Positions 40,164 through 42,396 of a stretch of 64,000 bases of DNA are shown here, piece by piece; the first letter of the stretch is position 1; every line of letters begins with the position of its first letter. The DNA is from Acutalibacteraceae bacterium (GTDB lineage: Bacteria > Bacillota > Clostridia > Oscillospirales > Acutalibacteraceae). The notes beneath the pieces were generated by a model that was not told the DNA's origin, made no database searches, and worked only from the letters and a program-made list of their open reading frames with translations. A program made the position numbers and the translations under genes. Where the stretch lies: contig JAZLAW010000002.1 of NCBI GenBank assembly GCA_045613385.1, forward strand, positions 8,630 to 72,629, read 5' to 3'.

Positions 40164-40829
40164 TTAATATGCAGTTAACCTGTAAATCGGGCAACCAAAG
40201 TCTACAAACTTTTGCTCGTACTCGGTTACAATATTGTCTTCAATATCACTTTTATGTACATCTAAGCAAACATCCTTTAACTTAAAGCCGTTAGCGGTTA
40301 ACTGTTCAATTGAAAACTCAAACAACCCACGGTTGTCGGTTTTAAAATGTATTTCCGCATTGTCTTTTAAAAACCCTTTATAAATATTTAAAAATGGCTT
40401 TGCAGTTAAGCGGTGATTGGCATATTTTTTCTTAGGAAACGGGCAGGAAAAATTAAGATATAATCTATCAATCGAGTTTTTTGGCAAATAGCATCTTAAA
40501 TATTCCGCAGAACATTTTATAAAAATTAAATTTTTAATGTTTTGCTCTTTTGCTTTTTCACAGGCAGACACAATTACGTTTGCAGTTTTTTCAACTGCGA
40601 TGAAGTTGATATCGGGATTTCTTTTTGCAATCTCGCAGGAAAACTGACCTTTTCCGCAACCTATTTCTAAGTGAACAGGATTATTATTTCCAAAAATTTC
40701 CGAATAATCAAAAATCTCACTTTCCAAAATTTCCGCATTGAAATTACGGTCTTCACGGTCAATAACTATTAGATTTTGCTGACAGTTACCCAGTCTTTCT
40801 TCTAAATATTTTTTCTTTCGCATTCTCAT
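40164..40829 (-). CDS. trmB: tRNA (guanine46-N7)-methyltransferase
   Basis: LEIGCGKG SAM motif and the FPDPW-like block (NFSCPFPKKKY..HR). Confidence 0.85.
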   Translation of the reverse strand: MRMRKKKYLEERLGNCQQNLIVIDREDRNFNAEILESEIFDYSEIFGNNNPVHLEIGCGKGQFSCEIAKRNPDINFIAVEKTANVIVSACEKAKEQNIKNLIFIKCSAEYLRCYLPKNSIDRLYLNFSCPFPKKKYANHRLTAKPFLNIYKGFLKDNAEIHFKTDNRGLFEFSIEQLTANGFKLKDVCLDVHKSDIEDNIVTEYEQKFVDFGCPIYRLTAY

Positions 40830-40893
40830 TATAATCACCGAAAGAATTATAACATACTGTTTAAAATTATTCAACAATCTTGCCGTTAATTAC

Positions 40894-40922
40894 TTGACAA
40901 TAAAAGCTAATATATATATAAT
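40894..40922 (+). promoter_or_regulatory. Consensus sigma-A promoter driving the leader plus tRNA-Leu transcript
   Basis: TTGACA (40894-40899), exactly 17 nt, TATAAT (40917-40922). Confidence 0.75.
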
Positions 40923-40931
40923 ATAATTTGT

Positions 40932-40956
40932 TATGCGGGTATGGCGGAATCGGCAG
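40932..40956 (+). repeat. Direct repeat copy 1: decoy copy of the tRNA-Leu 5' end
   Basis: TATGCGGGTATGGCGGAATCGGCAG is identical 25/25 to 41101-41125. Confidence 0.95.
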
Positions 40957-41100
40957 TTTTAAACCAAACGCTCACTGTGTGAGATGCAGTGAAGGTTTAA
41001 AAGGCGCAGCGGTCGAAATTATTCGGCCCTCCAAGCCGAAAATAATTTCGGGTAACCGCAAGAGTCACGCGGAAGCGCGGCTGCAATTTTTACAACTAAA
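40957..41100 (+). ncRNA. Unclassified structured RNA segment (candidate sRNA or tRNA-precursor leader)
   Basis: Paper fold: a 9-bp stem TTTTAAACC/GGTTTAAAA, a 13-bp hairpin CGAAATTATTCGG/CCGAA(AA)TAATTTCG with a CCCTCCAAG loop, GCGGT/ACCGC, and CGCG-GAAG-CGCG followed by AATTTTT. There is no credible ORF. Confidence 0.45.
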
Positions 41101-41103
41101 TAT

Positions 41104-41190
41104 GCGGGTATGGCGGAATCGGCAGACGCGCTAGATTCAGGTTCTAGTCGGGGCAACTCGGTACAGGTTCAAGTCCTGCTACCCGCACCA
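41104..41190 (+). tRNA. tRNA-Leu (anticodon CAG), class II with long variable arm, CCA encoded
   Basis: Acceptor GCGGGTA/TACCCGC, anticodon stem CTAGA/TCTAG with loop TTCAGGT, variable arm TCGGG-GCAA-CTCGG, T-loop GGTTCAAGTCC, 3' ACCA. 87 nt. Confidence 0.9.
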
Positions 41191-41233
41191 ATTCCCAAGC
41201 CATACAAAATTGTATGGCTTGGGAATTTTTTTT
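41191..41233 (+). terminator. Strong intrinsic terminator after tRNA-Leu
   Basis: 16-bp perfect hairpin ATTCCCAAGCCATACA-AAAT-TGTATGGCTTGGGAAT followed by T8. Confidence 0.9.
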
Positions 41234-41266: not shown

Positions 41267-41833
41267 ATGAAAAAGAAAACTGATTTTAAAATGCTTCTTA
41301 CCCTATTTGCGATTTTCTTTAAAATCGGTGCTTTTACTTTTGGCGGCGGTTATGCTATGATACCTCTTATCCAAAAGGAAGTAAGCGAAAACAAAAAGTG
41401 GATAACTAATGAGGAAATATTAGATGTCTTTGCGATTTCCGAATCAACTCCTGGACCGATTGCAATTAATTCCGCAACTTTTATCGGTTATAAGGTTGCA
41501 GGCTTCTGGGGCTCATTTTTCGCTACATTAGGGGTTGTTTTACCATCTTTTCTTATAATTTCATTGATTTCTTTGATTCTTGATAAATTCCAAAATTTAA
41601 AAGCGGTGCAATATGCCTTCTTCGGCATTCGCGCAGGTGTTTTAGCGCTTATCGTTAAAGCTTTCTGGAGCATGGCAAAGGTTTGCCCTAAAAAAACAAT
41701 TTCTTATGTTTTGGCAGCTCTTTCTTTCATCTTTGCCGCAATTTTGAAGGTCGATGTACTAATAATTATCATTGCTTGTGCTATTATTGGTTTGGTTACA
41801 TCTCTGATAACTGAAAGGAGATTAAGTAAATGA
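41267..41833 (+). CDS. chrA: Chromate transporter (CHR family, short half-protein 1)
   Basis: FGGGYAMIPLIQ and ESTPGPIAIN motifs. 188 aa. Confidence 0.85.
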   Translation: MKKKTDFKMLLTLFAIFFKIGAFTFGGGYAMIPLIQKEVSENKKWITNEEILDVFAISESTPGPIAINSATFIGYKVAGFWGSFFATLGVVLPSFLIISLISLILDKFQNLKAVQYAFFGIRAGVLALIVKAFWSMAKVCPKKTISYVLAALSFIFAAILKVDVLIIIIACAIIGLVTSLITERRLSK

Positions 41834-42396
41834 TTTTCCTGCAGTTATTTCTAACATTCTTCAAAATCGGATTATTCACTATCGGCGGTGGGTATGCCAT
41901 GCTTCCGCTTATCCAAGCGGAAGTTCAAAGATTAGGTTGGATGAGCGGTACAGAACTCGTAAACTTTATTGCAGTTAGTGAAAGTACTCCCGGGCCTTTT
42001 GCAATAAACTGCGCCACCTATGTTGGAGCACAAATGGGCGGTGTATTTGGTAGCATTTGTGCAACACTCGGTGTGGTGTTACCATCATTCATAATTATTT
42101 TAATCATCGCCGCATTTTTCGAAAAATTCAAAGATAATAAAATTGTAGTTGGTTGTATGACCGGTCTTAAACCCGCAGTAATAGGTTTAATAGGTTCTGC
42201 ATTGGTTTCCATTGCGACTACCGTTTTCTTTCACAATGGTTTTTCTCTTAATATTTTCTCTACCCCGCAGTTTTATGTGTCACTAATATTATTTATAACA
42301 ATGACTGTATGCGCTTTAAAAAAAGTCCATCCAATAATAATTATCTGTATTTCAGCTGCAGTTGGTATAATAACGGGGTACGCATTTAATTTCTGA
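41830..42396 (+). CDS. chrA: Chromate transporter (CHR family, short half-protein 2)
   Basis: IGGGYAMLPLIQ and ESTPGPFAIN motifs. Overlaps the first half-gene by 4 nt. Confidence 0.85.
   Translation: MIFLQLFLTFFKIGLFTIGGGYAMLPLIQAEVQRLGWMSGTELVNFIAVSESTPGPFAINCATYVGAQMGGVFGSICATLGVVLPSFIIILIIAAFFEKFKDNKIVVGCMTGLKPAVIGLIGSALVSIATTVFFHNGFSLNIFSTPQFYVSLILFITMTVCALKKVHPIIIICISAAVGIITGYAFNF

Follow-up and report, generated by a model that had tools for sequence, protein, structure and literature searches.

A 25-nt sequence that occurs twice in the 64,000-nt stretch of DNA analysed here (the window), together with the 144-nt spacer between its copies, makes up the visible parts of a truncated upstream tRNA-Leu(CAG) gene copy whose D-loop holds a structured module. 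The locus is ordered as tRNA-Leu nt 1–21/22, the module, tRNA nt 22–26 and a ~30-nt tail, followed by the intact tRNA, which lies 38 nt past the module (Table 1). Because the module sits inside broken tRNA gene copies and in a small jumping DNA element, and is absent from Rfam 15, it probably represents a new RNA class, functional or mobile.

The truncated tRNA-Leu(CAG) gene copy and its insert

The two copies of the 25-mer (TATGCGGGTATGGCGGAATCGGCAG) are identical at 25/25 positions and the identity stops at both edges; simple arithmetic gives a chance expectation of ~2e-6 for exact 25-mer repeats in 64 kb. With up to three mismatches allowed, the 22-nt tRNA part has exactly two matches in the 64 kb and none in 100 shuffles. 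In agreement with the original prediction, the second copy consists of 3 leader nt plus the first 22 nt of a tRNA recognized by both ARAGORN and Rfam, which report this as the only tRNA and no cloverleaf in the first repeat plus spacer. The first copy had been taken for a free-standing decoy; it is instead the 5' part of a truncated gene copy, with the acceptor 5' strand, the D-stem 5' strand GCGG (40944–40947) and the D-loop, and the D-stem 3' strand ACGCG persists after the module, as read directly against the intact tRNA (...GGCAG/ACGCGC). This ACGCG can pair with GCGG, making the module a giant D-loop insert, and remnants of the same kind trail the module in Ser, Pro and fMet hosts. The fold-back in the tail (CGCGGCUGC) is antisense to tRNA nt ~19–26.

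Table 1. Positions of the promoter, repeat, module, tRNA and terminator features at the tRNA-Leu(CAG) locus of the window.
Feature	Position	Strand	Description
Promoter	40894–40922	+	sigma-70-type, TTGACA-17-TATAAT, 12/12 match
25-mer, copy 1	40932–40956	+	3 leader nt plus nt 1–22 of truncated tRNA-Leu(CAG) gene copy
Structured module	40957–41066	+	~110 nt, two arms; model R1, covariation
P1	40957–40965/40994–41002		module arm
Inner pairs of P1 arm	40968–40990 and 40969–40989		
5-bp hairpin	40971–40975/40979–40983		
Joiner GGCGCA	41003–41008		holds lone pair C41005–G41062
P2	41009–41013/41055–41059		GCGGU with ACCGC
P3	41014–41027/41035–41050		variable loop 41028–41034
Bulge GGUA	41051–41054		
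Tail of module	41060–41066		AAGAGUC
ACGCG remnant	41067–41071	+	nt 22–26 (D-stem 3' strand) of truncated tRNA copy
Tail/leader accompanying module	41072–41103	+	fold-back GAAG-CGCGGCUGC, then AAUUUUUACAACUAAAUAU abutting tRNA
25-mer, copy 2	41101–41125	+	last 3 leader nt plus nt 1–22 of functional tRNA
tRNA-Leu(CAG)	41104–41190	+	intact, type II, CCA encoded; ARAGORN; Rfam RF00005, 49.2 bits
Intrinsic terminator	41190–41227	+	of module-tRNA transcription unit; 17-bp stem, then T-run

The TTGACA-17-TATAAT promoter claimed upstream of the first copy is present, and a + strand scan from there to the tRNA finds no further promoter-like site and none between module and tRNA, an interval in which a terminator scan also returns no terminator-like site. 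The promoter position is kept in the related loci L003, L004, L005, L008 and L251, and relatives likewise show a promoter only upstream of the first repeat, with such a motif preceding the truncated copy in 36 of the 42 comparable listed loci (class 1, described below). Since no promoter is recognizable other than the one before the first repeat, the natural reading is that both are co-transcribed in a ~300-nt precursor. The neighboring genes code for UvrB, TrmB, ChrA and oxaloacetate decarboxylase, with no integrase among them; an exact-protein look-up of the ChrA neighbor gave no match. A 68-aa open reading frame (40928–41134) was rejected as a gene, being without a Pfam match and overlapping the tRNA. 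Comparison of the spacer with phage and plasmid collections by BLAST, and with viral contigs by pattern scans, gave no relevant match; the 22-mer has a single viral match, to an ordinary tRNA-Leu(TAA) of a phage.

The spacer was predicted to be highly structured, and this is borne out on the tRNA strand, where its MFE fold has a z-score of -3.3 (-6.2 for the whole precursor). The predicted TTTTAAACC/GGTTTAAAA stem, the 13–14-bp hairpin and the GCGGT/ACCGC stem are all part of the MFE fold, and all three covary in relatives. Other details of the predicted fold are not sustained by the comparison. The CCUCC loop, described as anti-Shine-Dalgarno-like, reads GCUCCAA in L003 and L008 but GCUUAAA in L005, and most of the family has unrelated hairpins in its place; as the CCUCCAA loop is not conserved among family members, identity with a C-rich-loop sRNA of Firmicutes was rejected. 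Pairing of TAACCGC with the acceptor strand is not conserved either, its ACCGC being the partner of the internal GCGGU, and this pair covaries to GGGGU/ACCCC in L036. The hairpin followed by AATTTTT is not a conserved terminator, as the U-run is absent in L005 and L008.

The relatives show how the locus has varied. L003, L005 and L008, with TrmB identities to the window (100%) of 91%, 87% and 79%, respectively, carry the module within the same 145–170-nt insert, so that all four loci are occupied; L251 (75%) has the same synteny and a virgin site, with a plain promoter-leader-tRNA arrangement, and neither L251 nor L004 has a module in a search with the covariance model R1. The tail accompanies the module in L003, L005 and L008 and is absent from L251, whose leader is unrelated; L004 is a site with the tail alone. 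P1 is formed by UUUUAAACC/GGUUUAAAA in the window, UUUUUAACC/GGUUAAAAA in L005 and UUUUUGUUC/GAACAAAAA in L008, and beyond P1 another five modelled pairs are changed on both sides among these three loci. Such compensatory change between orthologous copies indicates that selection acts on the fold at this locus. In the truncated copy the acceptor part varies, with GCGGAUA in L008 in place of GCGGGUA, and it is missing from the copy in L064.

The module family and its host sites

R1 was built from 108 copies, with the window copy among the training sequences, and it matches 40948–41073 at 96.2 bits (E 9e-26, model positions 1–127), the only copy in the 64-kb window. The family signature in R1 comprises a P1 arm of the form GA.CGC-hairpin-GA...AG.GA, a lone pair (columns 65–133), P2 as GCGGU/ACCGC, a 3-nt bulge GGN, and P3; the window copy matches R1 full-length and so belongs to the family as defined. 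Copies missed by the seed pattern, which are independent, score 50–92 bits. Covariation in the family is very strong, although an alignment (A3) was fitted to the model, which biases somewhat toward the structure. In the 108 copies 97.4% of cells are paired, versus 81.7% in shuffles and ~40% with the partner slid, with 406 double-change cells versus 118. The top mutual-information pair is the lone pair, which is 100% Watson-Crick (GC 44, CG 42, UA 19). Compensatory changes are seen in 22 of 26 pairs in a sample not selected on P3, including 4/5 in P2 and 8/9 in P3, and the unpaired purine-rich joiners (GA...GA, AA and the GGN bulge) are conserved. The paired columns have 23 G-U and 29 C-A combinations, which identifies neither the strand nor RNA over a single-stranded DNA fold.

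At its gathering score, Rfam 15 finds nothing at the locus except the tRNA, so that no known family matches the module; when E values up to 10 are admitted across 700 nt, a single match, speF at 11 bits, overlaps the module, and nine other family members have no match in Rfam 15. Identity as an sRNA, riboswitch, ribozyme, T-box, group I intron or Y-like RNA was rejected, there being no Rfam 15 covariance-model match. Because no Rfam model matched, resemblances to T-box, twister, hatchet and hairpin ribozyme, and to group I P/Q elements, Y RNA and a T-arm, are kept as leads only. We found no published description of the module in the literature, and the mentions of tRNA in two motif-discovery papers (PMC8632094 and PMC11109978) describe nothing resembling it.

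Clostridia carry the module in at least 120 genome stretches, and at least 120 metagenome stretches have it as well; the carriers are dominant gut and rumen Clostridia (Acutalibacteraceae, Oscillospiraceae, Ruminococcus and Lachnospiraceae) and human-gut metagenomes. It usually occupies a partial copy of a neighboring tRNA gene (Leu, Ser, Pro, fMet, Trp or Asn), at either the D-loop or the anticodon loop, and one copy adjoins an antisense 5S rRNA fragment. An intact same-strand tRNA lies within 400 nt in 83 of the 124 listed genome copies. In 42 of these 83 an exact copy (at least 10 nt) of the downstream tRNA 5' end directly precedes the module (class 1, the layout seen in the window), and in 18 a copy of the tRNA 3' part follows it; in class-2 copies the repeated tRNA 3' part extends to CCA. 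In 62 listed loci the module separates promoter and tRNA, while 21 listed copies lie downstream of the tRNA and its terminator; the module always has the same orientation relative to its host tRNA. Antisense arms begin at the mature 3' ends of tRNA or 5S RNA.

About 90 near-identical copies are located at the apex of a 284-bp MITE with terminal inverted repeats (TIR) and 4-bp target duplications, a short form of which lacks exactly the 113-nt module. Variability in the MITE is 0.013 in the module versus 0.022 and 0.032 in the arms, values that are biased by the search pattern and were not used. Tandem or back-to-back module copies are seen in L011, L115, L118 and L038, a single assembly can hold several copies, contigs frequently break at the module, and outside the MITE the copies per genome are few. 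The nearest-neighbor module shares the host amino acid in only 45 of 76 cases, so the module does change hosts. Among the 120 listed loci, a search for a linked protein family returned only spurious ORFs over the module and a few integrases typical of tRNA loci (six listed loci, at tRNA-Ser and tRNA-Leu); there is no linked transposase, reverse transcriptase or integrase, and no TIR or fixed target duplication of the module's own. A crude comparison of true and mismatched flanks gives duplex energies of -15.7 and -15.4 kcal/mol (p = 0.2), and as this is non-significant we claim closing stems solely where they are directly seen: the D-stem at this locus, GATAA/TTATC in the MITE, L071, and GGGCCGATG/CATCGGCCC.

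Candidate roles and origins of the module

Our preferred reading, which we consider an even call, is that a tRNA precursor releases the module as a structured RNA, judging from the promoter and terminator layout and the conserved fold. A single precursor, running from the truncated copy through module and tail to the tRNA, would be transcribed from the promoter at 40894, and RNase P cleavage at 41103/41104 would free the tRNA and a ~175-nt module-bearing 5' product. With the fold kept by compensatory change in situ, this product would most likely be a stable structured RNA, which may bind a protein, ligand or RNA partner, or be catalytic. The module RNA would thereby borrow the strong promoter and the processing of the tRNA gene, with the host hairpin serving as the closing stem that it needs, and it could spread when module-plus-tRNA cassettes recombine or undergo segmental duplication, and as a rider on the MITE. 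The original prediction had offered an sRNA co-transcribed with the tRNA and the scar of an unusual insertion among its explanations, and each of these captures part of the truth. Some observations tell against a released RNA: no protein gene is consistently linked and the context suggests no ligand or target; and the ~90 MITE copies, together with presence or absence at this site (L004 and L251 versus L003 and L008), equally fit a selfish element.

The main rival is such a selfish, non-autonomous element lodging in hairpin loops, which we regard as possible if somewhat doubtful. It would insert, via DNA or reverse-transcribed RNA, into the hairpin loops of non-coding genes with high transcription, and its fold would serve its own propagation and not the host; the truncated copy and 25-nt repeat would be by-products of insertion or recombination, and the intact downstream tRNA would make the insertion tolerable. 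This accounts well for the unrelated hosts (D-loops and anticodon loops in tRNAs of six identities, the 5S fragment and the MITE apex), for the short MITE form lacking precisely the module, for the virgin L251 beside the filled L008 and others in the same synteny, for the tandem copies, multiple copies per assembly and contig breaks, and for the host switching, with the same amino acid in only 45/76 cases. The antisense arms start at mature tRNA and 5S 3' ends as cDNA would, but duplicated segments that include upstream leaders (L005 and the Ser loci) argue against mature-RNA intermediates for those events. It is harder to reconcile with orthologous copies that keep their fold by compensation, which dead insertions would not do unless gene conversion refreshes them, with the missing TIR, fixed target duplication and linked transposase, reverse transcriptase or integrase, and with the low copy number per genome outside the MITE. 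A further and unlikely reading has the module as a new small catalytic or self-mobilizing RNA, with a three-way-junction, ribozyme-like core and the host hairpin as its third helix, that colonizes the loops of abundant stable RNAs. It might enter the loops of tRNA, 5S rRNA and MITE transcripts, for example by RNA cleavage and ligation, with the product then reverse-transcribed and recombined beside the matching gene, and this would explain the D-loop and anticodon-loop junctions, the antisense arms from mature 3' ends and the permuted tRNA pieces. We note that these permuted pieces (module, nt 22–26, linker, nt 1–22) resemble Campbell-type integration of a ~170-nt circle.

The remaining alternatives place the function, or the origin, elsewhere. 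A cis-acting leader tuning tRNA-Leu(CAG) maturation or output, with the acceptor 5' copy competing for the 3' acceptor strand, is the decoy idea of the original prediction; it agrees with the MFE fold of the whole precursor, in which the first GCGGGUA is paired to the 3' acceptor strand of the functional tRNA, and with the 62 listed loci in which the module separates promoter and tRNA; it is made improbable by the 21 listed copies past the tRNA terminator and the ~90 in the MITE, where there is no tRNA to regulate, by the variable acceptor part (L008 and L064), and by the lack of a conserved terminator or anti-terminator between module and tRNA. A structure acting as DNA, folded as a single-strand site for recombination, replication or transposition in the manner of attC or single-strand origins, likewise seems to us improbable. 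As G-U is not enriched over C-A (23 vs 29 in the paired columns) the covariation would fit a DNA hairpin too, and the module occupies the apex of long inverted repeats (the MITE and class-2 tRNA arms) where cruciforms or hairpins form, but the module keeps one orientation to the host tRNA and occupies transcribed leaders, no recombinase is linked, and the unpaired purine-rich joiners are typical of RNA tertiary motifs. A deletion scar of an integrase-borne island between the two 25-mers would explain direct repeats of a tRNA segment beside an intact tRNA, and integrases do occur near the six tRNA-Ser and tRNA-Leu loci mentioned above. That reading is close to refuted: the repeat is the 5' end and not the 3' end of the tRNA, the insert is a covarying 110-nt module common to hundreds of loci with non-tRNA hosts among them, and no integrase is among the neighbors. 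The original prediction had also disfavored an integrase att scar, and this is borne out by the three relatives that share the insert and by the absence of a kilobase island at the site in any relative examined.

If the family is as it appears, a widespread, strongly conserved structured RNA joins the few bacterial classes of unknown function, and its invariable lodging in hairpin loops of stable-RNA gene fragments or a MITE has no close precedent among the families and elements compared. The module accounts for the truncated tRNA genes and 5' tRNA fragments that precede real tRNA genes in these genomes, for assembly breaks at such sites, and for long, structured tRNA leaders in the clade. A host function would make it a new abundant RNA produced at tRNA-gene levels; a selfish one, a new way for a 110-nt non-coding element to persist.

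Comparison with known systems

Elements with tyrosine integrases leave partial tRNA-gene duplications (attL/attR), and tRNA-linked repeats follow E. coli tRNA operons. The module loci are similar in that a tRNA gene segment is repeated beside the intact gene and brackets foreign DNA, reaching CCA in class-2 copies, but they differ in repeating the 5' end, and their insert is ~145 nt, folded, without an integrase, and also found in non-tRNA hairpins.

Bacterial tRNA introns are group I introns in anticodon loops, and archaeal ones have bulge-helix-bulge motifs at the D-loop and other positions. Like these, the module is a structured insert in a tRNA-gene loop with nearby segments complementary to the flanking tRNA; unlike them, its hosts are truncated, an intact neighboring copy does the job of the tRNA, and there is no group I core. 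To our knowledge bacteria have no splicing endonuclease. Deletion of the module over a grid of boundaries restores a tRNA by ARAGORN in only 1 of 130 cases (L064, in which the acceptor 5' strand is decayed), and none of 676 boundary combinations does so for the truncated copy at this locus; a tRNA intron was therefore rejected. The intervening sequences of bacterial 23S rRNA, in helices 25 and 45, are sporadic, replace the apical loop and are removed harmlessly by RNA processing. They too are extra structured segments in a hairpin loop of a stable-RNA gene, but they form simple long hairpins that lack a conserved multi-helix core, and they are not known from tRNA fragments or MITEs.

A riboswitch or attenuator leader was rejected, with no terminator-like site before the tRNA, the hairpin and U-run not kept in L005 and L008, and many copies located downstream of genes or in the MITE. 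Small structured repeats include MITEs, BOX, RUP and Correia elements, and comparative genomics has yielded orphan RNA classes such as raiA, ROOL and the RAGATH motifs. The module resembles these groups in being multi-copy, strongly folding and of ~100–300 nt in gut Firmicutes, with one lineage a MITE passenger, but it lacks a TIR or target duplication of its own and is not in Rfam 15. No inverted repeat flanks the module at this locus, where the surrounding direct repeat is host tRNA sequence, and it was therefore rejected as a MITE; the 284-bp carrier element elsewhere qualifies. The 3'ETS of leuZ in E. coli is a functional RNA cut from a tRNA precursor, and the module would be similar in being a non-tRNA RNA made from a tRNA promoter and released by tRNA processing enzymes. 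Spacers of the leuZ type are short, lineage-specific and act by base pairing, whereas the module is a widespread, covarying 110-nt fold set in a tRNA-gene fragment.

The tRNA-Leu(CAG) locus

The 25-mer TATGCGGGTATGGCGGAATCGGCAG occurs twice with no mismatches, identity ending at both edges, and its tRNA-derived 22 nt match nowhere else in the window even when up to three mismatches are allowed (no match in shuffles). As the original prediction held, the second copy enters a normal, intact tRNA-Leu(CAG), a perfect promoter precedes the first copy only, with no other promoter-like site on the + strand up to the tRNA, and the 144-nt spacer is highly structured (z = -3.3 against shuffles; z = -6.2 for the whole precursor). 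A 17-bp terminator follows the tRNA. The spacer carries a two-arm module, of which the covariance model R1, built from 108 copies, finds a single copy in the window. The module lies between GCGG and ACGC, the D-stem strands of the truncated tRNA-Leu copy, whose D-loop it thus occupies as a giant insert; the first 25-mer represents what remains of a host tRNA gene copy.

Features of the locus in the window, and elements of the module as derived from the alignment of 108 copies
Feature	Position	Strand	Description
Promoter TTGACA-17-TATAAT	40894-40922	+	perfect; upstream of first 25-mer copy
First 25-mer	40932-40956
Second 25-mer	41101-41125
D-stem strand GCGG	40944-40947		truncated tRNA-Leu copy
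D-stem strand ACGC	41067-41070		truncated tRNA-Leu copy
Module, R1 match	40948-41073		96.2 bits
tRNA-Leu(CAG), intact	41104-41190	+	entered by second 25-mer copy
trmB promoter	40874-40846	-	extended -10 type, 10/12 match
TrmB start, probable	40826-40829		221 aa, rather than 237-aa ORF
ChrA half-genes	41267-42396		188 aa, PF02417, adjacent, 4-nt overlap
Module P1			variable
Module inner arm			GA.CGC-(5-bp hairpin)-GA...AG.GA
Module joiner			between inner arm and P2
Module P2			GCGGU/ACCGC
Module P3			3' bulge GGN
Module lone closing pair	alignment columns 65-133

The genes around the locus have housekeeping functions (UvrB, a divergent TrmB, two ChrA halves and oxaloacetate decarboxylase), and there is no integrase among the neighbouring genes of the window. 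A 68-aa ORF spanning the spacer was rejected, matching no family. The tRNA and trmB promoters lie back to back (40846-40922), so that the tRNA m7G46 methyltransferase gene is divergently paired with the tRNA unit. The chromate-transporter half-genes are 73% identical along 79 nt of DNA, and the split pair is also kept in the relatives' loci L004, L005, L009 and L251.

Presence and absence of the unit among relatives

Relatives were located via TrmB homologues and their contigs compared at the locus; TrmB identity to the window is 91% in L003, 88% in L004, 87% in L005, 79% in L008 and 75% in L251. L003, L005 and L008 share the order promoter, tRNA-Leu 5' piece, ~105-nt insert, ~40-nt tail and tRNA, and in L005 the direct repeat reaches ~62 nt because the tail is duplicated as well. 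L251 keeps the ChrA / tRNA-Leu(CAG) / TrmB / UvrB synteny but has a plain promoter-leader-tRNA arrangement. The L251 leader (cttcttcactattacttat...) shows homology to the DNA preceding the first tRNA piece in L008, and an R1 search of L251 found no module. L251 thus represents a virgin site, to which L008 adds module, tail and tRNA nt 1-22. The presence of this unit differs between close relatives. L004 retains GAGTC and the tail but has neither module nor first tRNA piece, and we read it as a deletion derivative; L009 has a tandem pair of tRNA-Leu genes with tail-like leaders.

Orthologous P1 helices read UUUUAAACC/GGUUUAAAA in the window, UUUUUAACC/GGUUAAAAA in L005 and UUUUUGUUC/GAACAAAAA in L008. 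Both-sided changes between orthologous copies affect P1 and five other modelled pairs, and the module fold is maintained among these copies.

L005 also contains a 98-aa fragment of a Y1 transposase (IS200/IS605-type, PF01797; 1858-2154) ~1.5 kb from the tRNA-Leu locus, a single occurrence that is probably coincidence. L002, identical to the window, ends 5 nt past the first 22-mer, and contig ends within or adjoining the module or tRNA piece (L002 at 1-30, L006, L007, L018, L035, L054, L077, L107, L124, L125) suggest assembly breaks at the repeat, or population heterogeneity.

The module family and its settings

The core pattern GCGGTCGAAATT...AATTTCGGG was found in at least 120 stretches of species-representative genomes. 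The matches listed are nearly all gut and rumen MAGs of Clostridia, with two, three or tandem copies in some assemblies, and four (L015, L016, L061, L117) are unrelated. The first three of these, Micropepsaceae MAGs, carry a GC-rich element that has in common the hairpin GCGGTCGAAATTTCGG...GAAATTTCGGG and, further on, GTTCGACCGC; it is probably an Alphaproteobacteria structured repeat of another kind.

In the alignment of 108 distinct copies 97.4% of cells are paired, versus 81.7% when shuffled and ~40% with the partner slid; the lone closing pair has the top covariation and is 100% Watson-Crick (GC 44, CG 42, UA 19). R1 also recovers copies in fetched loci that the core pattern missed, with compensating changes in P2 (GGGGU/ACCCC) and P3 (CAAAAUU/AAUUUUG, CGACGA/UCGUCG). 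A second pattern with P3 left unconstrained was found in at least 120 metagenome stretches, and in the matches listed P3 varies freely together with its partner strand. Compensatory changes occur in 22 of 26 pairs across 60 diverse copies in an alignment fitted to the model. No Rfam 15 family matches the window module or nine other members, and no description was found in the literature searched. The spacer, which the original prediction had proposed to check for covariation and against Rfam, belongs to a large covarying family outside Rfam 15.

Among 124 genome copies listed, an intact same-strand tRNA lies within 400 nt downstream in 62 and upstream in 21, and 23 more are at contig ends. Class 1 comprises 42 strict cases among the listed copies, with Leu, Ser or Pro hosts, a count that omits the sole fMet case (L023, recovered by R1 alone). 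An exact copy of the tRNA 5' end, at least 10 nt long (10-24 nt in listed loci), breaks off in the D-loop and the module follows directly, succeeded by a few tRNA nt (Leu ACGCG, Ser CATAACGGGGC), often a short antisense fold-back, a leader and the intact tRNA. The window locus is a typical class-1 Leu case. The 18 class-2 cases among the listed copies (Pro, Met, Trp, Ser(GCU), Asn and one Ser(CGA)) lie 3' of an intact tRNA plus terminator; they open with an antisense tRNA copy, several starting at the mature 3' end, and continue with the anticodon-stem 5' strand, the module, the sense 3' part including CCA, and a second terminator. Tandem units in L036 (1-500, - strand) have the module preceded by the antisense 3' two-thirds of 5S rRNA, so that hosts extend past tRNA; gene calling on this 8-kb locus gave no intact 5S gene. 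In-silico deletion of the module gives back a tRNA in just one case, which rules out working tRNA introns. Nearest-resembling modules share the host amino acid in 45 of 76 (30% expected), with exceptions, and no protein family is linked to module loci.

Tandem arrays of units are seen in L118 (4200-4420), L011, L115, L038, L105, L074 and L078, and one pair of L118 modules adjoins without a tRNA piece in between (...CAACAGG directly followed by TGACG...). Further truncated tRNA-Ser copies, lacking a module, separate the module unit from intact tRNA-Ser in L102, L097 and L066; they comprise nt 1-42, breaking off in the anticodon loop, precede a common ~190-nt sequence, and may be remnants of old attachment sites. 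Seven tRNA genes are clustered in a 153-kb phage contig (IMGVR_UViG_3300021426_000002; L001:345-5000), whose tRNA-Leu(TAA) is identical to the window tRNA-Leu(CAG) over the first 22 nt.

One ~284-bp MITE from human gut (L131-L250; e.g. L132:9090-9380) accounts for about 100 of the 130 matches listed from metagenomes. It has 18-bp terminal inverted repeats (GGCAATACCGCATAATTC / GAATTGTGCGGTGTTGCC) and IS5-like 4-bp target duplications (CTAA, TTAA, TTAG), and is present in both orientations and in many copies per contig. It is a single long hairpin with the module in its apical loop. A short form of ~172 bp is without exactly the 113-nt module (90 long versus 22 short copies among listed metagenome matches), with junctions ...CTGGATG[CTGCAAAGGT...CCGCAACCCGACA]TTATCGAG in the long and ...CTGGATGTCTTATCGAG in the short form, the latter prevailing in uncurated "Bacteriophage sp." fecal records. 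The retrieved DNA yielded no autonomous partner. Complementary flanks surround other non-tRNA copies (L071, the GGGCCGATG/CATCGGCCC group); a crude general test for a flank closing stem was not significant. On Subdoligranulum variabile plasmid OY725839.1, 35 nt (94133-94167) match the P1 arm of the module carried by the MITE at 94%, a hint at the MITE host clade.

Structured RNA or mobile element

A single promoter would drive one precursor, from which RNase P would cut the tRNA free, leaving a ~175-nt RNA with the module; this RNA, or at least its fold, may matter after insertion, since compensatory change occurs in situ. Such change, with the presumed single precursor, favours a predicted functional structured RNA exploiting tRNA promoters, tRNA processing and the host hairpin, a reading from sequence that we hold with even confidence. 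Host diversity, the long and short MITE forms, tandem arrays and the virgin site speak for its main rival, a selfish element lodging in loops, which we rate as possible and clearly weaker; the two are not exclusive. A catalytic or self-mobilising RNA inserting into stable-RNA loops seems improbable.

The observation of the original prediction is confirmed and its interpretation supported in part only. A cis-regulatory decoy is less likely, as is a site acting at the DNA level. The repeats bracket no island in any relative compared, and the scar of one is also less likely. The feature is real, non-random and of no family found, and its genomic habit is unusual.
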